Source: Candidatus Omnitrophota bacterium (GTDB taxonomy: Bacteria; Omnitrophota; Gorgyraeia; Zapsychrales; Fredricksoniimonadaceae). Taken from it: a DNA stretch of 64,000 bases. The notes below the pieces were generated by a model. It made no database searches. It was not told the DNA's origin and saw only the letters and a list, made by a program, of their open reading frames with translations. Positions 14,459 to 58,569 of the stretch are shown piece by piece. The position numbers and the translations under genes are program-made. The stretch's first letter is position 1; the number at the start of each line of letters is the position of its first letter. The stretch spans positions 999 to 64,998 of the forward strand of contig JABDGZ010000004.1 of NCBI GenBank assembly GCA_013285735.1, in the 5' to 3' direction.

Positions 14459-17023
14459 TTACTTTATTATTCCTAACAGCGCCGGGACATTCTGAGTTGT
14501 TACAGGTTTAATACTGCGGATGATTGAGGTTAATCCATTCAAATTCATCATGGCACGGTCCTGATATTGAGCCGCAAGAGGCATGCCCATACCATCAACC
14601 TTGATATTCATCGTCAAATTTTCATCGCTCAAGTTGATACCACCAAGATCTGCCTCATGATGAGCCACAGCCGTCGCAGCCCTGTCCCTAGGGCTTGAAA
14701 AAGCATCTGTGGCAGCCAATATCAAATCATTTAAATCACGAATTCTTTTTTCAAGATCTCTAATCTTATACTTTGACTCCTTCCAAGCAATCGCCGTATT
14801 GACATCTTCTAATGCTTTTTCAACATTCTTTTGATCTTGACGAATATCACTAGCACTCCTTGCGCTACTAAAGAACGCTCCTAAATTCTTCACGAAATTC
14901 ATATTCTTTGATTCACTTTCAAGCGCCTCTTGTCTTCTTTTTAATGACATCCTCTCTAACTCTAAATTTTTCTCAATATCAAGATTTCTTATGTTTGCTT
15001 TATAGCCTGCTTTATAATTATTCTTGAACATTTGTCTTCCGGTAGCATCTATTTTTACCTCCATTCTTCTATTCAGTTCTTTCTGAGCATCTAAATCCCT
15101 TTCTGCATCTAGTAGACTTGCATTCAACATATCAACCGCCCCCGTTGTAGCCGCAGCTGATGGTGGGGTAGGAGTTGAAGTAGGCGCAGCTGGAGGCGCA
15201 TCGGGAATCTTAGCTAATAATTCATCCACTTCGCTCTGAAAATGAAGGATTGATATTCCAAGCTGATCAATCTCTTCGTGAGCTATAACCTCTAGTGTTT
15301 GTAAAACCCTTTCACTCGCCTCAATCTGCCTGTTGCTCTCGTCTAGCAGGGTTTCAATATTTGCTAAATTCTTTTTCATCTGCTTTCGAGTCTTTACTCT
15401 TATAAAAAGCCCGGTTAATTCATCAAAATTAAAAGGAAAACCTTGACCCCATAACGAGATACCCATCGCATCAACATAAGATCTTCTTTCGTCTTCATCC
15501 GCTTTTCTTTTAGCTTTCAAATAATCAATTCTTTTAGCTTGGTCCTTTATCCTCTCTAACCTATCGTTTACTTTATAAATACCCACCTGAAAATCACTGA
15601 TTCGACCGGTAAGATTTTGAAATTGGCCTTTCAAAATACCATCCATATCATGACCCTGCGCTTCTCCCAGCCTTTCCTTCGCAGCTTTAAATGTTTCTTG
15701 GGCCTTTAAAAATTTTATGTCTACAGACTCGCCCGTGCCTTCCCGAGCTTCTGCCACTGCCGCGACATCAACCTTACCTGCTGCAGCAACTGCCCTCCCG
15801 CCCAAAACCTGCGCATCGGTAAGGTGAGCAAAGGCCGTATGACTGGCAAAAACCGTCAATAAAACAGTCGCTAATGCAAATCTATGCATATTATTTCTCA
15901 TATTTCCCAAAAAAACAGCCACTCTTGCCTTGAAAGGACTTGTATTAATCTGCTCTTCAACCACCTGTTTCATCCCACCTGAAAAATATTTCCTTGGTAT
16001 TGTTTGGCCATCGGGAATGGCATCTTCTTTAATATAATTGAACACACCTTTCTTGTACGCCCTTAAATATTGCTTATATATTTTTTCCATCGCTTGCGGG
16101 TCGCTAAGCTTCTGCCCCGCGATCCGGGACCTATTGGCGAAAACTTGCCCTAAAAGACTTTGTTTAAGTGTCTTTTTAAACCATGTTGCCATGATCTCAG
16201 CGTTATACACTTGACGGACCGCAGCAAAACTCTTGCCCTCATTAACTTCCTTTTCAATAGCAGGAATAATAATTTCACGGACAATTGCTAAAGCCATCTG
16301 GGTCTTGGCATCTTTACTGGTATCCGGGATAGTTGAAATATTACCGAATTGTTCTTTATTTTTATCAATGGCCATATAATCCTGCTCAAGCATGACCTTC
16401 AGATGACTGTCTACCAAAAATGCTGTGTCACCTTTTTGATAAATATCCGCTTTATCAGCAACGATCCATACTTTGTTAAAAGTATTAACGCTGATATTGG
16501 TAGTGCCAAAACGGGCTTGGGCCTGTTGGTAAACCTCACTCCAAAACTTCTTGCCTAATCCGCTTTCCGGATAAATTAAAGATGCTGTGAATTGTTTGAG
16601 GATATAATCTTGAGCCAAAAGATCACGGCCCATTTCAGTTTGTCCAAAAACTTTAGGAATGATACGCTTGGACTCATAAGGAGAAAGATTCACCCACATA
16701 TCCGAATTCGGCATGGTAAGTGCAACCAAAAAATATTTAATAATTTTATTAAATTCTTCTTTTTCAACGCTATCCGACATAGGGGTTTCGCCACGATCCA
16801 TAATGAAGTCAAAATTAAACGGATCTTTGAGATTGATCTTAAGCCCTACCATCTGTGGTGGTTCAAAATGACGGGTAATATGAATCATCTGGCCCGGAGC
16901 TGGCATGACAATGCTCACCTGAGCATAACTGGGCTGGGCTGGAAGCAAACCAATGAATGCGACCAAAACGACAGAGACAATAAAACGAAATAATGAGGTC
17001 TTTTTAAATGTAATAGTACTCAT
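14459..17023 (-). CDS. large protein of unknown function, 854 aa. It has a signal peptide, a roughly 370-aa N-domain paralogous to the 49263..52474 protein, an internal signal-peptide-like hydrophobic segment, a coiled-coil-rich region and the shared C-terminal module.
   Basis: N-terminus MSTITFKKTSLFRFIVSVVLVAFIGLLPAQPSYAQ. The N-domain aligns with the other paralog (VNLSPYE..RIIP..FG.TEMGRDLLA.DY.LKQ.TASLIYPE; IPRKYFSGG). The C-terminus GGINLSDENLTMNIKV...IIRSIKPVTTQNVPALLGIIK matches the family module. Confidence 0.7.
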   Translation of the reverse strand: MSTITFKKTSLFRFIVSVVLVAFIGLLPAQPSYAQVSIVMPAPGQMIHITRHFEPPQMVGLKINLKDPFNFDFIMDRGETPMSDSVEKEEFNKIIKYFLVALTMPNSDMWVNLSPYESKRIIPKVFGQTEMGRDLLAQDYILKQFTASLIYPESGLGKKFWSEVYQQAQARFGTTNISVNTFNKVWIVADKADIYQKGDTAFLVDSHLKVMLEQDYMAIDKNKEQFGNISTIPDTSKDAKTQMALAIVREIIIPAIEKEVNEGKSFAAVRQVYNAEIMATWFKKTLKQSLLGQVFANRSRIAGQKLSDPQAMEKIYKQYLRAYKKGVFNYIKEDAIPDGQTIPRKYFSGGMKQVVEEQINTSPFKARVAVFLGNMRNNMHRFALATVLLTVFASHTAFAHLTDAQVLGGRAVAAAGKVDVAAVAEAREGTGESVDIKFLKAQETFKAAKERLGEAQGHDMDGILKGQFQNLTGRISDFQVGIYKVNDRLERIKDQAKRIDYLKAKRKADEDERRSYVDAMGISLWGQGFPFNFDELTGLFIRVKTRKQMKKNLANIETLLDESNRQIEASERVLQTLEVIAHEEIDQLGISILHFQSEVDELLAKIPDAPPAAPTSTPTPPSAAATTGAVDMLNASLLDAERDLDAQKELNRRMEVKIDATGRQMFKNNYKAGYKANIRNLDIEKNLELERMSLKRRQEALESESKNMNFVKNLGAFFSSARSASDIRQDQKNVEKALEDVNTAIAWKESKYKIRDLEKRIRDLNDLILAATDAFSSPRDRAATAVAHHEADLGGINLSDENLTMNIKVDGMGMPLAAQYQDRAMMNLNGLTSIIRSIKPVTTQNVPALLGIIK

Positions 17024-46716: not shown

Positions 46717-47211
46717 ATGGATAAACTTCCTTTACATACAATCAGTGTTTTAGTGGCTAATAAACCAGGCGTGCTGGTGCGCATTGCATTAGTATTCGCC
46801 CGTCGCGGCTATAATATTAATTCGCTGGTGGTCTCACCCACCATCAATCCTAAATATTCACGCATGACCATCACCGCCAAAGGTGATCTGGAAACATTGG
46901 AACAGATCATTAAAAACGTCAATAAACTCATTGATGTCATTCATTGCGAAGAACATCCTGCTAACACGGTAGAAAAAGAATTAGCCCTGCTTAAAACCAA
47001 GGCTTCCCCTGCAGTCAAAGCGTTTGTCACCAAGAACGCCCATAAATTCCACGTCCGTATCGATGACGCCTCTGAAGGCTGCTATATCATCGAACAGACC
47101 GGCACCACCCTTGAACTCGACGAGTTCGAGAGCTTAATCAAAAAATACGGCGTCCTGGAAATGGTACGCACCGGAAAAGTGCTTATTACCCGCGGACGGG
47201 AAGAGACTTAA
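46717..47211 (+). CDS. ilvN: acetolactate synthase small (regulatory, ACT-domain) subunit
   Basis: 164 aa with an ACT-domain N-terminus (ISVLVANKPGVLVRIALVFARRGYNI). Confidence 0.85.
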   Translation: MDKLPLHTISVLVANKPGVLVRIALVFARRGYNINSLVVSPTINPKYSRMTITAKGDLETLEQIIKNVNKLIDVIHCEEHPANTVEKELALLKTKASPAVKAFVTKNAHKFHVRIDDASEGCYIIEQTGTTLELDEFESLIKKYGVLEMVRTGKVLITRGREET

Positions 47212-49211
47212 ACTGCAGTTGTTATCCCAAGAAATCCCTTAAGATCTGTCATCGGCTTTATACTAATAATCACCGGCACAAAGCCCGGGGCGTTTCGAAG
47301 TTGTGCAAGCATAGCGGGATCAATGTGGAATTTGATTTCGCCGCCGTTATTCTGCGTCTGCAAATGCATGTTGGCAGGGGTTAAGTCGATACCACCTGTG
47401 CTTGATTCCTCCATTTGATGCATAGGTATAGTAGTATGCATCGCTGTATCAAATTTTAACAACACAAACTTCTCATCCTCAATACTGTTATATTGATCCT
47501 CCCCAAACATAGCTGTAAATTTCCCCCAAGAATCCATATGTTGAGGATGAACTTTGACCTTTGTACCATTAACATAAACTGGAAGCTTTTTGACAGTCTT
47601 GTCATTGTCAAAATTAAAAGCTCCATCTAAATCCCGAGGTAAAACCACCCCCTCCAATCCTAAGTTTCCTGCTAACTCATTTAACCCTTTAAGAAGATTT
47701 GTCAACAATTCCTCTCCATCTAAAGAAGCAGATTGAATCGTATCTACTACTAATACTTTTTTACCATCCTTTGTCTCTCCTTTCATCAAACCAACATAGC
47801 CCTTTAATTCTTTACCCTTATAAACAAAATAATACATCGTATCTTCGTGCATGGCCCTGGTAAATGCATACCCCTTATCCCTATCCATATCAAAAGAACA
47901 ATCCATAATTCCAGCTCTCCCTCTGAATACACCCAAAAATCCTTGTGGAACCAGCGAATAACCCTCCCCACCTTTGACCTTGATCACTTTGACTTTAGCT
48001 ATCTCCTCATATACATCGGCTGATAATTGTTCGAAACTCTCCGTAAGACCTTTAATGCTCTCTACCTTTACCCCTATGGCAGCCATCGGAAGATGTCTTT
48101 TGTAATCTTCGTAAAAACTCTTAAACGCTTCAATTTTTTCATCTATCTGTTCTGACTGAAGCTGTCGCACCAACCCTTCGTCTAACAAACTTTCAGCAAT
48201 GATTAAATTTCTCATTAAGACCAAACATCTTTCTGAATGCTCTCCTATGTATTTATCATAGGTTATTTTAAAAACCGTATTGTAGAATTCTTTCTTTTTT
48301 GATAATAATTCCTCTCTCATTACCATTTCTGATGGAAATGGAATACTAAATCTGTCCTTATCCGTAATAATTCCTTCGCGAATAGCTTCGTTTCTTTTAA
48401 AATTCCAATAAATATTACTTAATTTTAATTTTTTATCCCCTTCAAAATTCTCTAATAACCAATTAAAGCTATCTACCTCTGCCTGAATGCCCAACAATTT
48501 ATAAAGATGAGCATCAAACACCTCCCCATCGACATCCTCGACGACTTTATTTTCATACTCTGTAGCGCTAACGTTTAATACTCCCAAGCCTTTGGTTTTA
48601 TTAAAAAGCATTTGCCAGTATCCGGGATTCTTTTTATCAAATTTAATTAACTCACCTATCCTTTCTTCAAATTCATCCCTTGTCAAAACTATCCCGCTAC
48701 TCCTGACAGCCACGTATGCAAACCATAATTTCTTGGGATCATTATAATCAAAACCATTCTCTATTACTTGATGTGCTTCTCTTTTTATTTGTTCAACAAA
48801 TCTAACAGGATCACTACTATCCCAAAAAGACTCAAAAATTTCTTCTTCATATGGAAAATTTTCTTTAATCCATAAAGAATATCTCATAAAACCCTCTGGC
48901 GAGAAATTCTTTTCCTCGATCATTCTGGGATATACAAAACTCAAAACATTAAGAATTGCATGCCTTGCATCTGTACCCCACTCTGAATTTAAACGCTTTT
49001 CTAGATCTTCTGATGTTAAATATCCCTGCTCGACCATTTTTAAATACAGGGGACCCAAAGCATCAACGATTTCATCTCTAACGGAACTATACTCTCTAGT
49101 ATCAAGGAGTTTTTCTAAGACTTCTATAGGCACCCTCTCTCCTCGCTCTGCCCTCCATAGGTATAACTTGCTAAGAGCTTTGATGATTGCTTTCTGTGAA
49201 TCAGAATACAT
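47208..49211 (-). CDS. large protein of unknown function, 667 aa. It has no signal peptide and carries the shared C-terminal module.
   Basis: C-terminus STGGIDLTPANMHLQTQNNGGEIKFHIDPAMLAQLRNAPGFVPVIISIKPMTDLKGFLGITTAV. The coding sequence is AT-rich. Confidence 0.7.
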   Translation of the reverse strand: MYSDSQKAIIKALSKLYLWRAERGERVPIEVLEKLLDTREYSSVRDEIVDALGPLYLKMVEQGYLTSEDLEKRLNSEWGTDARHAILNVLSFVYPRMIEEKNFSPEGFMRYSLWIKENFPYEEEIFESFWDSSDPVRFVEQIKREAHQVIENGFDYNDPKKLWFAYVAVRSSGIVLTRDEFEERIGELIKFDKKNPGYWQMLFNKTKGLGVLNVSATEYENKVVEDVDGEVFDAHLYKLLGIQAEVDSFNWLLENFEGDKKLKLSNIYWNFKRNEAIREGIITDKDRFSIPFPSEMVMREELLSKKKEFYNTVFKITYDKYIGEHSERCLVLMRNLIIAESLLDEGLVRQLQSEQIDEKIEAFKSFYEDYKRHLPMAAIGVKVESIKGLTESFEQLSADVYEEIAKVKVIKVKGGEGYSLVPQGFLGVFRGRAGIMDCSFDMDRDKGYAFTRAMHEDTMYYFVYKGKELKGYVGLMKGETKDGKKVLVVDTIQSASLDGEELLTNLLKGLNELAGNLGLEGVVLPRDLDGAFNFDNDKTVKKLPVYVNGTKVKVHPQHMDSWGKFTAMFGEDQYNSIEDEKFVLLKFDTAMHTTIPMHQMEESSTGGIDLTPANMHLQTQNNGGEIKFHIDPAMLAQLRNAPGFVPVIISIKPMTDLKGFLGITTAV

Positions 49212-49262
49212 GTATCCGTCAGATAAATACAGGTATAGGTAATCATTGGAATGATATAAAAT

Positions 49263-52200
49263 TTAATTATTGTGGAACTGTTGAGGAGATTTAGATGTCA
49301 ATCCCAAAAATATCCTAATGTTTCTCATTGGCTGAATATTAATAATAACTGGTATAAAACCATGGGCATTTTGTAATTGTTTAAGCAAGACAAGATTAAG
49401 ATGAAATTTAATTTCACCATTACTATATTGAATTTGAAGATTCATATTCTCAGGAGTTAAGTCAATACCACCATAATTTGGATTGTTTAATTGTGCAACA
49501 TAATTATTACCAACGTTTTGAGGTCGCTGTGACCATAAACTTAATTCTCTAATCATAGGTGGGGTTAAAGAATAATCCCACCTTCTGTCGTTCACACGAT
49601 CACGAACATCCACGCTTAAATATGTGAACTGCTCAACCTTAACTTGATTTTCATCAAGCAAATGGATAGTCTGTCTCAAAGTTGATTCTGCCCATTGGGG
49701 GGTAGCCCCATAAGGACCGCTGGATGGAATTCCAGCTTCTGGAAACACCCAAGGCTTACTAACATAGGTTTTTGATACGCGCTTAATATAATCAAATGTT
49801 TCATCTTTGTTTAAAGGAGTTAAATATAAATCAAAACCAAATGCATCAAAACTATTTAAATTCGGGCGATAGTTTTCTCCGTACTTATTCATCTGAGTGT
49901 AAACAATTCTAAAGTTTAAACCATTTTCTTGGCCCAAACGTCTTAAATATGCAGATGTATCCTCAAATCTTTTCTTATAGGCATTATATGCCACTTCAGT
50001 CCATCTCTTTCCATTAGGAGTTCCATCCTCAGTGCCATAAGACATATTATCTGGCTCCGATGCTACTCGGATATAAATAGTGTCATTTTTATCAAAACCT
50101 GCGTCTTTAAATTTTTGCACCATAAAATCAATTTCTTTTTGATCAATCGTTTCCAAGCCTATAAATGGTGCGACTCCCATACCTCTTAAACGGTTCAATT
50201 CATTAACATTCCAAACAGCAAAATTTGAAGCCCCGGTGCTTGAAGGAACATCATGATTCCAATAATACATAAGAGCTTGATGAGAAAAAACTCCTTTTTG
50301 CCTTCCATATGCAATGGTCTTAAAATATTGATCAACTGTAAAATTAGGAAGATAATCGGAGTACGCCCCAACCGGTTTATCAATCTTATTTTCTGGTTGA
50401 GGAGCAAAAGATACTGTTTCGGTACCTTCTTTACTATCAACTTGAAAAAACGAAACGCTCGGTGGTTTATTTTCAAATGTTGGAGCTACCTTATTATGTG
50501 CATATGCTTGAGGCATCATGAAAAGTGCACTAACCCCCAATGTTAAAGCTATGGCGGTTGCCAATGTTCTTTTAGGAGTGAATAATCTTTGTACCAAGGA
50601 TTGTACGAAAGGAACAGATGGGTTTCTTCTAGAAGGTTTTGAGGGGACCTTAATGGGAGACGCGGTACTCGTTTTAACAGCCATTGTAGGTTCAACCGCT
50701 ACAACCGGACTACTTGGTACTTGTATATTACTGCTAAGTGCAAAGATATTTTGAACTTCCTGAATTGTTTCCAACCTACCCGTATATGCCGCTGATATCA
50801 ATCTAATCTTTATTCCTAACGGAAGGCCTCCGGTCTTTTCATCCTTTTTTAAATCATCATCACTAATCCCAAGGCTATCCTGAATACCCTTGATCGTTTG
50901 ATCAAACATTTCTTCCTTCTGAGAAACCATTACTCCATTCCTGTTAACTTTTTTTGCTAAAGATACGTACAATGCTGCTGTTAATATTCTTTGTTTCTGT
51001 ACATAATCTAAATTTTGAATATTAATACCAAATCTATTTTCTACATCGCTGATAAACCTTCCCCAAGCTGCATATGTCGTCTCACCCGATATTTTGTCAA
51101 CAACAGTTAAAAGTTGTCTTTTAGCTGTAGGCCTAAGATTTTCAAAATCGATCCCATATTTAGTAGAAAAATCTCTTAGAATTTTTCCCATAACTCTTAT
51201 ACGCTCATCAGTCACCCTATCATTATGAACTTTTGAAGCAATGATGTTACCAACTTTTGCTTTTAATTTCCTATTCTTATTCCCTTTCAAAATTTCTGCT
51301 AAAGAATTTTCAACATCAGCTCTTTCAGTCTGCTCTGTGATCAACATTGCCCTATCTGGTGAAAGCATCGCCCCATCAGCACCATGCGAATCTGAAGTAA
51401 CTTCAAAATTAGGAATCTCTAAATTAGAATCCCCTTTTTGAAATAATGCCAAAAACGCTCCTCCTGAGAAATATTTCCTTGGTATAGTCTCTTGCGTTAC
51501 AGGATCAACATCTTCTTTGATGTAGTTATACACACCCTTCTTAAAAGCCTTAAGATATCGCTGATAAATTTCTTCTTTCTCCTGTGGGTTATCAATATTG
51601 ACTCCAGCGACCTTGTTCTTATCCGCGTATACCTGTGATAATATGCTTTCTTTGATTTTTTTCTTATACCATGTAGCTAAAATGAGCGAACTATATACCT
51701 GACGTAGTTGGGCGAAATTCTTATCTTCATTAACTTCTTTTTTTAATTCAGGAATAATTATCTCGCGTACGATCTGGCTGCCTAATTGGTTAGTATCTTT
51801 TGCTTGTGTCTGCCGAGATTGGATTCCTTCATGTTTGGTCAATGACAGATAATCTTGCTCTAACATTACTTTTAGTTTTGATTCGACTACATAAGCCGTG
51901 CCTGCTTTTGTATTCTCATAAACTACCGCTTTTTCAGGTACTATCCAAACCTTGTTAAAGGTATTCACCGGAACATTGGTTGTCCCAAATTTTTTAGCGG
52001 CTTCTTCGTAGATTCGCTTCCAGAATTTCTTTCCAATCGTATCTTCAGGGTAAATCAAGCTGGCTGTTATTTGCTTGAGCATATAATCTTCGGCCAACAG
52101 GTCTCGCCCCATCTCAGTAAGCCCAAAGCTATTAGGAATAATACGATCCTTTTCATACGGGGAAAGATTGACCCAAAGGTCTTTCTCAGGGATGGTCAAA

Positions 52201-52474
52201 GAGGCAAGGAAATATTTAATCAGTTTGCTAGATTCATCTTTAAGCTGGCCATTGCTTAATTCACCATCTCCTTTATCTAGAATAAAGTCAAATCTAAACG
52301 GGTTATCAGGATGAACCTTGATTCCTTTAAGAATCGGTGGATCAAATGGAGGACTTAAATGAACCATGACCCCAGGCGTAGGCAAATAATAATCTTGGGC
52401 TTGGGCTAAGGGCATGGGGCCAAAGGAATTAATCAAGAAGGCTACAAGAATAAGGATTAATAGGGATTTTCTCA
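49263..52474 (-). CDS. large protein of unknown function, about 1070 aa. It has a signal peptide, an N-domain paralogous to the 854-aa protein, an internal signal-peptide-like segment, a possible TIM-barrel hydrolase-like region and the shared C-terminal module.
   Basis: I chose the start at Met 52474 (MRKSLLILILVAFLINSFGPMPLAQAQ, a Sec signal). The ORF track starts 13 codons upstream. The C-terminus is YGGIDLTPENMNLQIQYSNGEIKFHLNLVLLKQLQNAHGFIPVIINIQPMRNIRIFLGL. Confidence 0.7.
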
Positions 52475-52667
52475 TCTTAATATAAATATACCATGCATTT
52501 GATAGTAAAAACAAGGGTTGGTGGGAAACTGGCTGGGAATGATACCATAGATCGTTACCCCCCTGCTTGTGAGAAAGTTGAGAAGATCTTATGTGTGAGC
52601 GAAAAAGTCTTTAAGAAGATTCAAAGGGATTTTGAGAGATTTGGTATCAAGGTGGGAAACTGGCCTT

Positions 52668-54224
52668 TTAGGCTTTTTGCCATCTGTCAGGAAGAAGTTC
52701 CTCTAGTCGTGAGATTGGATGGGACTGAATTCTTTGTAAAACGTCTTTCAAATAAGTCCACGTATTGATCTTATTTTTGCGGCAAGTGGCGGTAAAGGTC
52801 ATGAGTATCGCAGCTGTATGACCACCTTTTTCACTTCCAACAAAAAGCCAATTTTTGCGTCCTAAGGCTATTGGACGTATGGCATTTTCAGCAAGATTAT
52901 TGTCTATCGGTAATCGGCCATCTTGAAGATAAGCATTAAGTTCTTTCCAAAGGCCAAGCGTGTAATTAATGGCCAGACGCATGGGTGATTGTGGTAAATG
53001 TCCGGGAAGATGTTCTTCAAGTTTATTTTTAATTTTATCTAATAACACCCTAGATTCTTTTAACCGGAGAGCATGCCTATCTTTTGGGCTTAAGAATTTA
53101 GCATCAGATTCAACATGATACAATTTGGCGATTAGCACCAGTACTTCAGTTGCTGCGCGTGGTGATGTTTTTTCAGCGTCTAGAAAATACCGCCTTGCAT
53201 GCGCCCAACAGGCTAAATGGGTTACGATGTGAGCGGTGGTTTCCTCTGTGGTAGGAGGTTTTCCTAATCCGCTATAGCCAGCATAGGCATCGGACATAAA
53301 AAATCCTTTGTAATCTTTAAAGAATTCCAATGGACCTTCTTTACAGCGGTTTATTGTAAAATTGTACAGTGCATATTTGAAGTTTTCAGCTCCAACTGTT
53401 GCCCACATCCTTGCTGTCTGTATCCCTTTGTTCGGGCCATCTCGCATGTCCACCGGGGTGTCATCATTGCCTACAATGCCGTGTTCAAAGATTTTATTGC
53501 GCTTTAGATCATATAAAGGGGTAAGTGCTAAGGCGCATCCATACATCCAATCAGCCATGGTTTGGCGGCTGATATTTACACCTTCTCGTTTAAGTTTCTC
53601 TTCAATCCTGTACAAAGGGGTATGATATTCAAACTTCTCCGTGATCACATAGGCTAAAAGACCAGCATCTGCTTCACAGCGTTCAATAGGGCCTTCCGGT
53701 GTGGGATGCTGTTTAACACCACAGCCATCACAGCGACTATCCCCACAAGCATACTTGGGTCTCACATAGCTATTGACCAACAGGGATGAGGGGTGGTAAT
53801 CAAGGCGTTCGGTTATATCATCGCCGATATGAACAAGCTTCTTGCCGCAGCCACAGACTTTTTTCTCTTCATGGACATCTAAAACATGTTCAACACGCTT
53901 AAGATGCTCTGGTAATTTCTGACGGCCATGATGATTACGCACATGTGCTGTTACCGCCGTTGTTGTCTCAAGCAGGGGATCTTCTGCCTTTGGGGCAGTA
54001 TTCTTGTCTACTTCTAGGATAAGTTCTTGCATAAGCAGTTGATTGGGGTCAAGTTTTTCACTGCTTCGGCCATACAGACGTTTTATCAAGCCTTCTAATT
54101 GGTGCTGCTGTTTAAGGATTGTATTTTGGAGGGTTTCTACAAGTGCTTCGAGTTGTTGGTTTTGTTCTTTTAGGTATGTATTTTCTTCAGCAGGAGTTGA
54201 GAAAGTAAGCGTCGTCGATACCAT
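52668..54224 (-). CDS. tnpC: IS66 family transposase TnpC
   Basis: N-terminal leucine zipper, then a zinc-finger region CGCGKKLVHIGDDITERLDYHPSSLLVNSYVRPKYAC, and a DDE core. Confidence 0.85.
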   Translation of the reverse strand: MVSTTLTFSTPAEENTYLKEQNQQLEALVETLQNTILKQQHQLEGLIKRLYGRSSEKLDPNQLLMQELILEVDKNTAPKAEDPLLETTTAVTAHVRNHHGRQKLPEHLKRVEHVLDVHEEKKVCGCGKKLVHIGDDITERLDYHPSSLLVNSYVRPKYACGDSRCDGCGVKQHPTPEGPIERCEADAGLLAYVITEKFEYHTPLYRIEEKLKREGVNISRQTMADWMYGCALALTPLYDLKRNKIFEHGIVGNDDTPVDMRDGPNKGIQTARMWATVGAENFKYALYNFTINRCKEGPLEFFKDYKGFFMSDAYAGYSGLGKPPTTEETTAHIVTHLACWAHARRYFLDAEKTSPRAATEVLVLIAKLYHVESDAKFLSPKDRHALRLKESRVLLDKIKNKLEEHLPGHLPQSPMRLAINYTLGLWKELNAYLQDGRLPIDNNLAENAIRPIALGRKNWLFVGSEKGGHTAAILMTFTATCRKNKINTWTYLKDVLQRIQSHPISRLEELLPDRWQKA

Positions 54225-54277
54225 TAGATTTATATTAGCACTTATCGTCGGTGAATCAAGATATTTATTAGATATTT

Positions 54278-54637
54278 TTACATCATTTTAACATTATCAC
54301 GTCGGTATCGTGGTTGACGTTTGATCACTCTTGCTTCAATTCCTTCAAGTAAATTTGCCCATGATGCACGGTCAAGACAGCTACCATCATCAGAAGGGAT
54401 CACAAACCTACCTGCTTCAAGCCGTTTATACCACAACGCATAACCATCGTTATCCCAATAGAGAACTTTTAACTTGGTTTTATTTACATTTAGAAAAACA
54501 AACCAATCGCCATTTAAGGGGTCTTCATGCATTTCATCGGTCACCATCAATGACAAACGATCAAAACTTCTGCGCAAATCACAGCTGCCGCGATATAAAA
54601 ATATCCTGACATTGTTCAAATTAATTCCTGAGATCAT
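54278..54637 (-). CDS. tnpB: IS66 Orf2 accessory protein TnpB
   Basis: 119 aa with [23 protein letters not shown], the characteristic IS66 Orf2. Confidence 0.85.
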
Positions 54638-54936
54638 ATGGCTTTGACCAACCCAAGGATCTTTTGGAAAATCAATTCATCAAAACCATTGAGCTCGATC
54701 TTGTACCCATTGGGGGTTTCAATATGAAGATCCTTCAGGGTGGGGAATGAAGGTTTGATTAACCGAAGGAATCCTGGCTTGGGAGATTCATTACTGATTA
54801 ATCTTTTACGCCATGCATAAAAATTGCTTATGTTGATATTTTTATTCTTGCAGTATTGGGATATTGATAAACCGCTGGTAGGTTGGGCAAAAAGTATTTT
54901 TTGCCATTGCTTCTTTGATCGAAAAATTTTCTTCAT
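54634..54936 (-). CDS. tnpA: IS66 Orf1 (TnpA-like helix-turn-helix protein)
   Basis: 100 aa with a 4-bp overlap with orf2 and an AGGAGG RBS. Confidence 0.7.
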
Positions 54937-55026: not shown

Positions 55027-58000
55027 TTGAGTGGAAATGAGAATTCAGAAAATAAATCTTCACGTTTACAATTCGTTGACATAGTGAATCCGACCCTTGT
55101 TACCCAAATATATCATGAGGCAAATAAAATAATTGGAAATGCCGCTAAATGGACTATTGCAAAACACAAGTTTTCTGAGTTCGATCCAAGAATATTAGAA
55201 GAATTAATGAAGCCAGAAAATGATATTTTGGAGAATATTTCTTCAACAGAGGTCCGTTTAAAGGCTAATTTAGACTGGAATAAACTTATTAGGATACAAG
55301 AAATTGCGGGAAGTGATTTTGAAAAAATTAGGGACATTTTGCAACAGTCCGAAGTGAGAACTGAATATAAATTTGAAATTAAAGATTTTGCTCCCAAAAC
55401 TCCTGATTATTCATCTTTTGAGGGTAAGACAATTGATAGTTTGAAAGAATTTGATGAATGGGCCCAAGTTTACGCACTTGCTTTTTTACCTGCAGCTTAT
55501 GGTGACCCGCAACTCATTGATAAATCGAGACAGGAAATTTTATCTGTAATTGATAAGGACCCAAGAAAGAGGGATCTTTGGTCAATGGTAAGAAATGGCT
55601 TCAATCAAATGACCTCTATTACTACTAAAGACACTGAGCGGAAATCACATTTGAAAACACATCTTGGCACTATTTTAGACGATAGAAAGGGTATTGAAGA
55701 AAAGCTTGAAGAATTGAATAATACTCGCACATTGCCGGAATTGGATGAAATGATAGCAGCAAATAATGTAATGTCATCGGTAGGGAATGGGGTGGTGACA
55801 AGCGGGGAAATAGGAAAAATTGCAGCGGGATTATTACCGGGATTGGCGTCTGGTTTAGGGGCTATTGATCAACCAATAGAATCTTTCGTTAATGCGGCGA
55901 TGAATGCAAGGGATCAGGCGATGACTGTGGTCGATCAAAGGGATCGATTGGTTCGAAATTTGAGAATCTTGTTAGAAAGGCCGGATGTTCAAATAGGATT
56001 AGGTAATCATGAGGCTGTTCGTTACATGTTAAATGGCGTAGCAAGTGCCGCAACAATAAATCCTGGTCCCGCTGCTGTTATTTCATTAGAAAGTTATATA
56101 AAAAAGATAGAAGATTTACTTATTCCAGTGAAACAAAAAATTGAGCTACTAAAGAAGCTTCACAACGAAAATCCTGAGGTTTTCAATGAAGTTGATCAAA
56201 TGGTGATGCTTGAGAATGAAGGATATTCTCCAAAAAAGAGATCGATTGTAAATAAATTAGATAAGGATGAAAATAGTTTTTTGTTTTCTAAGGTTACTAA
56301 GATTCTTGGAGCACGCATATATTATGTGGATCCAACTGTTAAAATACTTATGGCGCATTATGTTCAGGAAGAAGGTGCTAATAAAAGAATAACTTATCAA
56401 GAGCCAACTGCGCTTTTGTTTTCTACATCATCATCCGTCGCCAAGATACAGGCCCAAGCAGCGACACCGGCAGAATGGATTCAAAGGAATCATATGTATG
56501 TTATTGATGGTAGGGAGAAGTTTACAGATCTTGTGAGGTTTACAGAATATTTACTCAAGGCTTATCGAGCCAATCCACATATTCCAGTTGTAGGCTATTT
56601 AGATAAATGGTGTGTGCTTCCAACTCCTCTCGACTTAGTAAAGGAGCGTTTGATCGGTTCCAATGATGTTGTCCGTGCGCTTTCTGATGAAGCGGTAAGT
56701 CGTTCTAATAATATGCCGGTATCAAGTGACGGCATTTTCGATTTGTATTATTTTGCGTCTAAGCTTCTAGATGAAAGGCAAATAAGAGCAACACCTTTCG
56801 TTACGGGTGAATTTAAAGGCGTTACATTAACTGCAATTCGTGAATCGACAATAGAAAGCATTATCACTGAATATAATAAGGTGGTGGCCCGTCCGACAGA
56901 ACCCTATGCTCCTCAAGGCAGCATTGATGGTCAAGCAGCGACACCAAGAGAATGGATGGAAAGACATAATATTCAAATTTTAGAAGGCAGATCATTAAAC
57001 GGTATTAAAAGTGTTGAAGAATTGGCTATGATTTTAGTTCAGCAATTTCAAACCAGACAAAGGCCTGTTGCGGCTGAATGGGAAGGGACTTGGTTAATGA
57101 CAGATCCTTATTTATTCCTGGAGGCGGCTAATCTTGTTGACGTTGGTCAAAGAATGGTTTATGAATGGAGAGAGCGTAAAGCTCGTGCCACTGTTTTGGA
57201 TAGAGGCATTCCAGATTTGAATAATTTTGCGGCTACGTTATTGGATGAAAGGCAAATACGGGGCGATGTTGTGGTTAAAGGCGAATTTGGAGGGATTACT
57301 TTAGTAGCCAATGGACGCACAACGTTACGCAATATTATTCGTCAATATAATGTGGCGGTAAAAAGCATTCCTTCTGTTGGCCCTTTTGATAGTAGTCGCG
57401 AGGTAAAAAGCTTGGATGCATTGGTTAAACGGCATAATATATTATGGATTAACGGGAATGAAATTTTTAGAAAAAGAGGACGGCTGGGGAAGGCTGCTGA
57501 TATCATAGATTTCGCTTTGGATTTAATTGATTTTCAACGTCTAAATCCAATCCAGCCGCATGGCGGCACATGGAATGGGGTGAGCCTAATTTTAGATCCG
57601 TTTTACTTAATGGGGGTTAGCACAGTCGTTGCTAATAAAATTAAAACTCAATATGATCGTCGTTTTAGTAATGAGGAAGAGCCTAATAGACCTATGGAAA
57701 GCTTGTTAGATTTTGCCATCAGACTTTTAGAGGAGAGGGTAATAAGAAGAGATTCTTTCCCAAATGCAAAGCAATTTGAAGCTATCTATAAAGATCCGTC
57801 CGACCAATCTGATGATAAGGGCACCAGTTTAATAGTAACTCCACAATCAACAGTAAAAAGTATTATAGGTCAGTATAATAGAAAGAACCCGCTAAAGCCT
57901 TATACCCCTAACCATAACGAATTAAGAGTTTTTTATGAAGATAAAATGGGAACTGGCGGGATGGGTTTTATTAGGTTTTTACTTGAGGAATACCGATGGG

Positions 58001-58569
58001 ACCCAAGCAGGCCGGTTATTGGCCTAACGCATGGTAAATGGGTCACCCCAGAGCCTTCTGACTTGGTTGTCGATCCTTATTCCGCTGTTTCTAGAATTTC
58101 TAAGGAATTGGAAGATCGGATAAATAATAATCCTTTAGCAGATGACGGTATTGAAGACGTGAGGGATTATGCAGAGGAACTTCTTCATGAAAGAGATATG
58201 AGACAAACACAACAATCTGTTGATAAAGTTACATTTAAAGGCATACAATTAATAGTATCTCCACAATCAACAATAAATAGTATTGTCGAAGATTACAATC
58301 AACAAACTGCTCAATCTCCATCGGCGACAGATGATCAGGCGATGAAGGTCACTGAGAAAAGGTCTAATGGGCCAGGTGGTATCGATTTAAGCCCTGCTAA
58401 TAATGTTTTACAAACCCGAAATGCTGGCATAGGGATCAAATTTCACTTAGATGCTGCCCAGCTTGCCCAATGGCAAAAAGCCCCAGGTGTGATGATTGAG
58501 GATATTACTATCCAGCCGCTTAAAAGTCTTTCTGTCTTTCTTGGTCTACCTGACAGCCAACCTGTTTAA
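55027..58569 (+). CDS. large protein of unknown function, about 1180 aa, with four tandem repeat modules of about 170 aa and the shared C-terminal module. The 5' end is possibly truncated by the IS66 insertion.
   Basis: It starts at a TTG immediately after an in-frame stop, about 90 bp from the IS66 orf1 start, with no SD sequence. The repeats carry LL(D/E)ER.IR...GEF.G(I/V)TL......I..YN. The C-terminus is GPGGIDLSPANNVLQTRNAGIGIKFHLDAAQLAQWQKAPGVMIEDITIQPLKSLSVFLGL. Confidence 0.65.
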   Translation: MSGNENSENKSSRLQFVDIVNPTLVTQIYHEANKIIGNAAKWTIAKHKFSEFDPRILEELMKPENDILENISSTEVRLKANLDWNKLIRIQEIAGSDFEKIRDILQQSEVRTEYKFEIKDFAPKTPDYSSFEGKTIDSLKEFDEWAQVYALAFLPAAYGDPQLIDKSRQEILSVIDKDPRKRDLWSMVRNGFNQMTSITTKDTERKSHLKTHLGTILDDRKGIEEKLEELNNTRTLPELDEMIAANNVMSSVGNGVVTSGEIGKIAAGLLPGLASGLGAIDQPIESFVNAAMNARDQAMTVVDQRDRLVRNLRILLERPDVQIGLGNHEAVRYMLNGVASAATINPGPAAVISLESYIKKIEDLLIPVKQKIELLKKLHNENPEVFNEVDQMVMLENEGYSPKKRSIVNKLDKDENSFLFSKVTKILGARIYYVDPTVKILMAHYVQEEGANKRITYQEPTALLFSTSSSVAKIQAQAATPAEWIQRNHMYVIDGREKFTDLVRFTEYLLKAYRANPHIPVVGYLDKWCVLPTPLDLVKERLIGSNDVVRALSDEAVSRSNNMPVSSDGIFDLYYFASKLLDERQIRATPFVTGEFKGVTLTAIRESTIESIITEYNKVVARPTEPYAPQGSIDGQAATPREWMERHNIQILEGRSLNGIKSVEELAMILVQQFQTRQRPVAAEWEGTWLMTDPYLFLEAANLVDVGQRMVYEWRERKARATVLDRGIPDLNNFAATLLDERQIRGDVVVKGEFGGITLVANGRTTLRNIIRQYNVAVKSIPSVGPFDSSREVKSLDALVKRHNILWINGNEIFRKRGRLGKAADIIDFALDLIDFQRLNPIQPHGGTWNGVSLILDPFYLMGVSTVVANKIKTQYDRRFSNEEEPNRPMESLLDFAIRLLEERVIRRDSFPNAKQFEAIYKDPSDQSDDKGTSLIVTPQSTVKSIIGQYNRKNPLKPYTPNHNELRVFYEDKMGTGGMGFIRFLLEEYRWDPSRPVIGLTHGKWVTPEPSDLVVDPYSAVSRISKELEDRINNNPLADDGIEDVRDYAEELLHERDMRQTQQSVDKVTFKGIQLIVSPQSTINSIVEDYNQQTAQSPSATDDQAMKVTEKRSNGPGGIDLSPANNVLQTRNAGIGIKFHLDAAQLAQWQKAPGVMIEDITIQPLKSLSVFLGLPDSQPV

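Follow-up and report, generated by a model that had tools for sequence, protein, structure and literature searches.

Polymorphic toxins and effectors of bacteria, exemplified by CdiA, Rhs and MafB, combine a conserved N-terminal trafficking region with swappable C-terminal modules that follow a demarcation motif (VENN, PT-type or DPxGL), and we know of no CdiA, Rhs or MafB system in which the cargo modules keep export signals of their own. Signal sequences internal to a long open reading frame (ORF) are familiar from viral polyproteins (Flaviviridae and others), in which they are cut by host signal peptidase. The Omnitrophota, widespread, mostly uncultured and ultra-small bacteria that are thought to be predators or parasites, possess multi-domain proteins of extraordinary length, the biogenesis of which is not understood. 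Here we examine two paralogous proteins, A and B, encoded in a stretch of 64,000 nucleotides from a Candidatus Omnitrophota bacterium (contig JABDGZ010000004.1, hereafter the window), each of which carries inside a single ORF a segment with the appearance of an N-terminal Sec signal peptide. The comparisons presented below suggest, with a probability of about 0.6, that these segments are signal peptides by descent, contributed by whole secreted precursors that were fused in-frame behind a shared leader.

Both proteins belong to a family in which a signal peptide and an N-domain of ∼315 residues ending in RKYFSGG are followed by variable cargo and a C-module of ∼65 residues (GGIDL...). A search with residues 1-409 of A retrieved 1420 proteins at E ≤ 1e-5, and the family comprises more than 1400 clusters at 90% identity; where a source is named it is Omnitrophota or Omnitrophica, except for one metagenome-assembled genome (MAG) labelled Elusimicrobia and unclassified entries from a vent metagenome. 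A pattern scan of GTDB species genomes gave at least 587 loci, and several often fall in one genome. The N-domain has no match to a known fold (two-partner secretion, Rhs or other), Pfam or NCBIfam, and the C-module has no match in Pfam or NCBIfam. The wider picture is that of a very large modular Omnitrophota family outside these two databases, in which captured pre-proteins appear to keep their export signals. Recognizable cargo domains include response-regulator receivers, HAD, methyltransferase, shikimate dehydrogenase, protein kinase, PP2C and HATPase domains, and a Pfam deaminase match is found in a split gene neighbouring a family locus. As in CdiA, Rhs and MafB, a conserved leader (signal peptide plus domain) precedes highly variable cargo, a short motif conserved at the protein level (here D-x-A-M, or DxAM) marks the boundary, the number of family members per genome is massively expanded, and the cargo contains effector-typical enzymes (kinases, phosphatases, a hydrolase and the neighbouring deaminase match). 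Unlike in those systems, the variable part is flanked by conserved modules on both sides and does not form the C-terminus, and the N-domain is without a known trafficking fold. Family genes lie among housekeeping genes, and these neighbourhoods showed no linked protease and, in contrast to contact-dependent inhibition (CDI), Rhs and Maf loci, neither an immunity gene nor a dedicated secretion partner.

Giant multi-domain proteins of the same phylum have been reported to contain many scattered membrane-helix and signal-peptide calls, and the passages of the two preprints that deal with signal peptides, termini, transmembrane segments, fusion and cleavage leave the processing of the products open (10.1101/2023.11.21.568195; 10.64898/2026.06.07.730766). 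In those passages, West-Roberts et al. note that no cleavage points are known for these proteins (10.1101/2023.11.21.568195), and in the other preprint internal ‘S’ (signal-peptide) calls are discarded as chunking artefacts (10.64898/2026.06.07.730766). The same passages hold nothing that matches the N-domain, the C-module or DxAM, motifs for which the preprints were not searched by name, and a literature search on Omnitrophota polyproteins found no paper. As far as those passages go, A and B resemble the giant proteins as long ORFs that concatenate enzyme-like units with hydrophobic segments between them, although they are of ordinary size (0.85-1.1 thousand amino acids (kaa)). The likeness to viral polyproteins lies in segments composed of n-region, hydrophobic core and c-region, with AxA-type sites, inside a long ORF and at the start of exported units. 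In the viral case, however, what comes before such a segment either is cytosolic or terminates in a stop-transfer helix, whereas the N-domain ahead of the segment in A and B carries an export signal of its own and no anchor intervenes; moreover, cleavage has been demonstrated for viral polyproteins, whereas for A and B it is putative.

Signal-peptide-like segments inside proteins A and B

Protein A (14459..17023, minus strand; 854 residues) consists of a signal peptide, the N-domain, a linker, the internal segment, coiled-coil-rich cargo and a C-module. Its N-terminal Sec-type signal peptide (residues 1-34, 16922..17023; MSTITFKKTSLFRFIVSVVLVAFIGLLPAQPSYA, ending PSYA/QV, where the slash marks the putative cleavage site) has a hydropathy peak of 2.79 and passes the signal-peptide rule described below. 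The N-domain (residues 35-350, 15974..16921) ends in PRKYFSGG, and the internal segment, which is identified by its sequence and by the same rule, occupies residues 375-399 (15827..15901; MRNNMHRFALATVLLTVFASHTAFA/HL). The cargo (residues 400-793, 14645..15826) is coiled-coil-like with a linker rich in Pro, Thr and Ala, and the C-module (residues 794-854, 14462..14644; GGINLSDENL...QDRAMMNLNGLTSIIRSIKP) is of a variant subtype. Protein B (49263..52514, minus strand) has 1083 residues from a TTG codon, in which numbering it is described here, and 1070 residues from the more likely ATG at 52475. A Sec-type signal peptide (residues 14-39, 52398..52475; MRKSLLILILVAFLINSFGPMPLAQA, ending LAQA/QD) is followed by the N-domain (residues 40-352, 51459..52397), assigned by BLAST similarity to A and by the family consensus, a double junction motif DGAMLSPDRAM (residues 380-390, 51345..51377), a first module, the internal segment (residues 643-672, or 630-659 in the 1070-residue numbering; 50499..50588; ...RLFTPKRTLATAIALTLGVSALFMMPQAYA/HN), a clan GH-A-like (β/α)8 glycoside-hydrolase domain predicted from motifs, an AlphaFold model and Foldseek (residues 673-1014, 49473..50498), and the C-module (residues 1015-1083, 49266..49472; GGIDLTPENMNLQ...FIPVIINIQP). 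The N-terminal domains of A and B are 52.7% identical across ∼340 residues (BLAST). Gene callers on independent assemblies give one gene for each protein, so that both internal segments lie inside single ORFs; A is called as a single 854-residue gene on an independent public assembly, which rules out an artefact of this window as the source of its fusion, and protein P0122 of a public collection is identical to B. Neither A and B nor the two other family members in the window, C and D, gave a family above threshold in Pfam, NCBIfam, PADLOC or PHROGs.

The initial annotation of this DNA had described in each protein a basic n-region, a hydrophobic core and an AxA site, and all three are present in both sequences. 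The n-region is MRNNMHR in A and RLFTPKR in B, with positive charges at R376, R381 and H380 in the former and at K648 and R649 in the latter, which has further basic residues upstream (R643, R629-R630). The cores (FALATVLLTVFA and TLATAIALTLGVSALFMM) are long, at 14-15 residues, and the c-regions (SHTAFA and PQAYA) place small residues at −3/−1 of canonical AxA sites (AFA/HL and PQAYA/HN). The interval originally assigned to the segment of A, 15808..15880, does cover the core and the AxA site, but the basic n-region reaches 15901. The two segments had also been taken to occupy equivalent positions, which has to be corrected: that of A lies 25 residues past the end of the N-domain (residue 350), whereas that of B lies ∼290 residues past it, behind another module. 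The N-terminal location of a Sec signal peptide is lacking in both (residues 375 and 643), and neither contains a twin-arginine motif.

Lysine and arginine residues number 3 on the N side and 2 on the C side of the segment in A, where the C flank is net acidic, and inspection of the flanks in B likewise places the basic residues mainly on the N side. Insertion free energies were summed over 19 residues using the scale of Hessa et al. (2005) without position weighting, and are therefore approximate; they amount to +3.6 kcal/mol for the internal segment of A and to +2.2 kcal/mol for that of B, the latter about equal to B's own N-terminal signal. The N-terminal signal peptides of the window give sums of about 0.0 to +2.1 (+0.03 for A's own and +1.6 to +2.1 for three others), and its membrane helices −4.6 to +0.8. 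Neither segment thus has the insertion free energy or the positive C flank of a stop-transfer anchor, although their uncharged stretches (∼20 residues for A, 23 for B) would be of borderline adequate length for a membrane span. By these sequence-derived measures, the polarity and hydrophobicity of both segments are shown to be like those of signal peptides and unlike those of membrane helices.

The frequency of such segments was estimated by scanning every window ORF of 150 residues or longer (18.7 kaa) with a home-made signal-peptide rule. A segment passes if its flank is net positive, its hydrophobic core has 10-15 residues and no charge, positions −3/−1 hold small residues, and the sequence that follows is not hydrophobic. 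Seven internal matches were obtained, two being the segments of A and B, two lying in a multi-pass membrane protein and three being weak, with cores of 10-11 residues. In the two tails of A and B, ∼0.26 matches are expected against the 2 observed, which taken alone is modest evidence.

The hydrolase-like precursor in protein B and segments in homologues

The decisive evidence on the nature of the segments comes from homologues, namely from the alignment of the B segment with N-terminal signals of standalone proteins and from a ∼6-fold clustering of signal-like segments behind the N-domain. An exhaustive phmmer search with residues 639-1011 of B retrieved 20 proteins. Those that are complete stand alone, have 353-491 residues and are collinear with the query from their own N-termini, as seen for P0131 (371 residues; query 33-360 against protein 32-362) and P0124 (391 residues; query 65-361 against protein 66-369). 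These relatives begin with Sec or lipoprotein signals (e.g. MRSKFILFVLLLTLFSLAPVLFS and ...VFLVLLLGC), which align opposite the internal segment of B; an Elusimicrobia MAG protein is found in one of their clusters. The exhaustive search was needed, as a word-indexed search with the B cargo gave no matches, and a PDB sequence search gave nothing useful. Since the standalone relatives are collinear and have N-terminal signals of their own, B would embed a whole secreted precursor, and a complete unit of signal peptide plus predicted GH-A-like hydrolase is shown by these alignments to lie between its leader and its C-module.

The hydrolase assignment itself derives largely from structure prediction. 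The B domain matches Pfam GH113 at E = 0.01, below the cut-off, and no Pfam family reaches threshold, whereas EP and PE.G motifs are invariant in a 10-sequence alignment (A4). The AlphaFold model of the cargo has a pLDDT of 74, with the internal segment modelled as a helix (cargo-model residues 9-28), and Foldseek against the PDB returned GH26, GH113 (mannanase), GH2 and GH1 enzymes with a probability of 1.0, the best being a GH26 xylanase at E = 5e-8, and with TM-scores of 0.3-0.55. The domain downstream of the segment thus models as a clan GH-A barrel and is glycoside-hydrolase-like, its activity being a prediction. Clan GH-A glycoside hydrolases are an enzyme class that is typically secreted. 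The B segment and domain together are collinear with standalone precursors, as in secreted clan GH-A hydrolases (GH26, GH113-like) with Sec signals for signal peptidase I, but unlike those precursors the unit sits 640 residues into a larger ORF and has the C-module behind it.

Family tails, the part following the N-domain (which always ends in PRKYFSGG), vary in length from ∼90 to over 2300 residues. Across 134 non-redundant tails, the signal-peptide rule accepts 35 segments. Twenty-one of these start within 130 residues of the N-domain, at a density of 1.2 per kaa compared with 0.2 per kaa beyond, so that 21 of the 134 tails (∼16%) carry an early signal-peptide-like segment; about a fifth of the tails have a hydrophobic segment soon past the N-domain, and most members have none between N-domain and C-module. 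Polarity was assessed on hydrophobic segments chosen without a charge criterion. In the early segments (n = 26), lysine and arginine residues average 3.08 at the N side and 1.96 at the C side (N > C in 19, N < C in 6), whereas late segments show no charge bias (15 versus 13). The earlier observation that the positive charges lie on the wrong side for a stop-transfer anchor therefore holds for A, for B and for 19 of 26 homologue segments.

Signals of other export routes are found at the same place. Motifs of the twin-arginine translocation (Tat) type follow the N-domain in 4 of 120 homologues: P0112 (NQAM-KRVVSRRKFLKTASLGGAAALPA, with the Tat motif SRRKFLKTASLGGAAALPA), L014 (DRAM-SSDMGRRQFLSKLGIAIAG, with GRRQFLSKLGIAIAG), P0019 (SRRRFLGML) and P0062, which is close to the motif S/T-R-R-x-F-L-K. 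The chance expectation for ∼88 kaa of tails is below 0.1 as a rough, uncomputed estimate, and the Pfam TAT_signal match of P0112 (E = 0.0066) is below the curated cut-off. Lipobox-like internal signals occur in L080 and L018. With a Sec-exported leader in front, a Tat passenger would make no topological sense if the cargo were not set free or produced on its own. A listing of twin-arginine motifs inside N-domain fusions (SRRKFLK, GRRQFLSK, SRRRFLG; tail residues ∼42-75) includes P0112, P0019, P0062, P0034 and L014, and in P0112 and L014 the motif stands directly past the DxAM methionine.

For A, a word-indexed search with the cargo matched only the C-module, and a scan of Joint Genome Institute (JGI) metagenome contigs gave no relatives of the cargo. 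The nearest N-domain relatives of A nevertheless all have an equivalent segment with the same layout and unrelated sequence (L006, L004, P0001, P0003, P0004, P0006 and L005), for example EKAM KANRFQR FLMAGVGLLVFGVG AQA/QP in L006 (81% N-domain identity) and GAM AGKTAR ILMVATLFATL SGKVFA/G in L004 (78%). An early hydrophobic or signal-like segment is present in 10 of the 11 relatives closest to A in the N-domain (identity of 58% or more), compared with 17 of 123 others, and in P0007 and L007 the cargos share 34% identity that begins exactly at the segment. Retention of the layout despite complete sequence turnover suggests that the segment is still functional in this clade; the pattern is indicative of purifying selection on the physico-chemical layout, and not of a segment that is simply decaying.

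Several side observations concern this clade. The gene in L006 (7000..11500 of that locus, in a metagenome assembly taken to be long-read) has two compensating frameshifts that are probably homopolymer errors, and after frame correction it reads as a textbook internal signal, EKAM KANRFQRFLMAGVGLLVFGVGAQA/QP. In L004 (tail ∼421) and L010 (tail ∼567) a second hydrophobic segment with a basic C-terminal flank is present that A lacks. If all such segments were spanning, the C-module would lie on different sides in close relatives, which argues against reading every one as a membrane helix. Just 5′ of the internal methionine of A, a run of seven T residues (GCTGTTTTTTTGGGAAAT, 15884..15919, minus strand) forms a slippery-type heptamer, U UUU UUG, and a −1 shift there would meet a TAA stop ending 1 nucleotide before the ATG of Met379 (TAATATG). 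Programmed −1 frameshifting at this run was considered and rejected, the run being absent from the closest orthologue, L006, and not conserved; the heptamer is probably coincidental.

Junction motifs, C-modules and disrupted genes

The dipeptide AM occurs within 90 residues past the N-domain in 73 of 98 homologues, often twice, and is embedded in a motif with the logo (A/V/I)-D-x-A-M-(A/L/I/V)-(V/S/T). Methionine occupies the motif position in 45 of 111 cases, compared with a background of 2.3%. Long members have DxAM at every module boundary, and then again 10-25 residues ahead of the C-module and within it. Receiver domains begin 9-12 residues past the DxAM methionine, and PP2C and HATPase domains in L036 each fill one DxAM-delimited module, as does a protein-kinase domain, and the delimited modules are whole-protein-sized. 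In the window, 8 of 9 [DN]xAM motifs fall in A, B, C and D; besides the double motif of B (51345..51377), sites lie at 14549..14560 in A, at 47439..47450 and within 47211..47396 in C, and three times in D (55027..58569), and the motif is found at many of the loci L004-L083. The codons of the motif vary synonymously (GCC/GCG/GCT/GCA; GAT/GAC), Shine-Dalgarno-like sequences are not enriched before the junction methionines (0.12 versus 0.15 in controls), and non-Met residues at the motif position show no preference for GTG or TTG. The synonymous variation together with the lack of Shine-Dalgarno enrichment indicates selection at the protein level, and on the same grounds DxAM is ruled out as an in-frame ribosome-binding site with start codon. 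The motif could be a junction or a processing signal.

The C-module follows the pattern GG(I/V)(D/N)L ... (D)PAM ... P(V/I)I..I.P, which is canonical in B, C and D and variant in A. Protein C (47208..49211, minus strand; 667 residues) has a DTAM motif and a C-module (47211..47396), and protein D (55027..58569, plus strand; 1180 residues) has three [DN]xAM motifs and a C-module; both are without a signal peptide and without the N-domain motifs WVNLSPYE, TFNKVWI and PRKYFSGG that occur in A and B. The ∼65-residue C-terminal module (GGIDL...PVI..I.P) is common to B, C and D, the C-module of B being 55% identical to the C-terminus of C and 44% to that of D. The C-terminus of A gives only a weak BLAST match to that of B (E = 0.005), but a near-identical variant pattern ends L004, L005, L010, L030, L006, P0001 and P0002, and from this comparison the C-terminus of A is clearly a variant of the same module. 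In the family consensus the AxA-Q end of the N-terminal signal peptide is conserved, and the minimal member, P0111, consists of N-domain and C-module alone.

The signal-less 667-residue protein C had been regarded initially as a hint that the C-module is cytoplasmic. This now appears weak, as 38 of 48 C-module ORFs also have the signal peptide and N-domain, and of the 6 complete C-module ORFs that lack them, 4 share their strand with an N-domain gene that itself has no C-module at its end, which makes these 4 look like broken pieces of one longer ORF. Two-gene versions, which the initial annotation proposed to look for among orthologues, do exist but are rare and look secondary. Approximately 47 of 51 complete loci are single ORFs, and the three independent split cases comprise an in-frame TAG that takes the place of the first AM methionine in L002 (6250..6340; L003 is the same genome), a +1 frameshift right past the GG of RKYFSGG in L001 (7040..7216), and an in-frame stop in the linker of L050. 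Ancestral two-gene versions were accordingly rejected as an origin, all three splits having the appearance of secondary disruptions. In L001 and L002/L003, the two cases with a downstream gene call, the downstream ORF is called from the AM methionine.

Origin and present use of the internal segments

The sequence features described above can be accommodated by cassettes in which a conserved leader (Sec signal plus ∼315-residue N-domain) is joined to one or more cargo modules and a ∼65-residue C-module, with DxAM usually introducing the modules. Cargo modules would be whole proteins joined in-frame, and a captured secreted precursor would bring along its own Sec, Tat or lipoprotein signal, which now lies inside the ORF. 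The full-length chain may be exported through the N-terminal Sec signal, and the weakly hydrophobic internal segment would then mostly pass the translocon without anchoring, thereby placing the hydrolase domain of B outside the cytoplasm, where its standalone relatives work. Fusion of two secreted proteins, one of the readings first offered, is directly supported in B by the collinear standalone homologues; for A the same capture origin is presumed. In the A clade the segment might, for instance, still serve by associating transiently with the membrane, by engaging SecA anew or by being used once the protein is processed. Several points weigh against descent by capture. The cargo of A has no standalone relatives, so that a fusion origin for A depends on analogy; segment presence tracks N-domain similarity in the A clade and the segment could be an evolved feature of the leader and not a captured signal; the home-made rule gives ∼0.2 false matches per kaa; and the free-energy sums carry the approximations stated above. 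In addition, stop-transfer polarity is seen in L072, P0015, P0066 and the second segment of P0091, which suggests that true membrane anchors do occur in the family.

That last point bears on the anchor reading, in which the N-domain is exported, the segment halts translocation, and the C-terminal half with its C-module stays in the cytoplasm in type I topology. It could draw further on the uncharged stretches of A and B, which might span a bilayer, on C and D as C-module proteins without signal peptides, and on the cytoplasmic type of many cargo domains (response regulators, PP2C, kinases). We regard it as quite improbable for A and B: the basic residues are on the wrong side in both and in 19 of the 26 early segments, the sums of +2.2 to +3.6 are far from those of the window's membrane helices, a cytoplasmic site would be non-native for the B domain, whose standalone family members are secreted, and the Tat and lipobox-type signals found at the same place cannot anchor. 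The general lack of a hydrophobic segment between modules further implies that N-domain and C-module normally share a compartment. The initial ranking, which placed in-frame fusion or a separately made C-terminal half above a membrane anchor, thus stands on polarity, hydrophobicity and the Tat-type signals. Mere resemblance to signal peptides without a shared cause might be suspected from the three weak rule matches, which lie in ordinary cytoplasmic proteins of the window, but this is very improbable given cores of 14-15 residues with canonical AxA sites in both paralogues, the clustering across 134 tails, the positional homology of the B segment to real signals and four independent Tat-like motifs; chance is effectively refuted by the clustering, the standalone homologues and their alignment.

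A functional internal export signal, whereby the C-terminal part is made separately, either by a start at a methionine or by cleavage near DxAM, and is then exported and trimmed, is compatible with a fusion origin and would add a present-day use. The basic n-region has a methionine immediately in front of it in A and in 5 of the 8 closest segment-bearing relatives (L006, L004, P0001, P0003 and P0004), internal signals directly follow the DxAM methionine in L014 (DRAM-SSDMGRRQFL), P0112 (NQAM-KRVVSRRKFLK), P0004, P0011 and P0083, and the density of signal-like segments in family tails is threefold higher within the 30 residues that follow an AM methionine. Intact Tat motifs would be sensible only with a free N-terminus and a passenger folded in the cytoplasm, the downstream ORF of disrupted genes starts at the AM methionine, DxAM is conserved on both sides of the methionine at the protein level as for a recognition site, and the relevant passages of West-Roberts et al. 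raise cleavage of the giant proteins as a question (10.1101/2023.11.21.568195). Present-day use of this kind is nonetheless unlikely on balance. A methionine lies within 14 residues upstream of early segments in 13 of 30 cases against 28% expected (p = 0.07), which does not differ from late segments, and a conserved initiator methionine before all internal signals is accordingly unsupported family-wide; the B segment has no nearby ATG or GTG, only a TTG without a Shine-Dalgarno sequence; the junction methionines, as described, lack Shine-Dalgarno enrichment; and the housekeeping neighbourhoods hold no protease linked to the family.

It is a more speculative and rather improbable proposal that the leader/cargo/C-module proteins are bacterial polyproteins, in which processing at DxAM would free cargo with a new N-terminal methionine and the signals would then route the modules in the producer or, if delivered, in prey. 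If true, it would supply the cleavage-point information that is missing for Omnitrophota multi-domain proteins and explain why intact Tat signals persist inside ORFs. Under descent by capture, the internal signal peptides would provide direct evidence of how such ORFs are assembled, and together with DxAM they offer concrete positions at which to ask whether Omnitrophota multi-module proteins are cut and where the pieces go. Topology predictors can be expected to read relic signals as membrane helices, and pipelines that drop internal signal-peptide calls as artefacts may lose real information.

The four family members of the window also show some features of local arrangement. The start of C is separated from the stop of B by 51 nucleotides, which read as 17 sense codons uninterrupted by another stop, and the two genes share a frame (49212..49265); this could reflect either a tandem arisen by chance or an ORF that was once continuous. 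A self-BLAST of D gave no internal repeats at E < 1e-3. Between the divergent genes of B and D lie ORFs of 518, 119 and 100 residues (52668..54936, minus strand), which by size, order and sequence, and without a family search, we take to be of IS66 type (a transposase with two small accessory ORFs).

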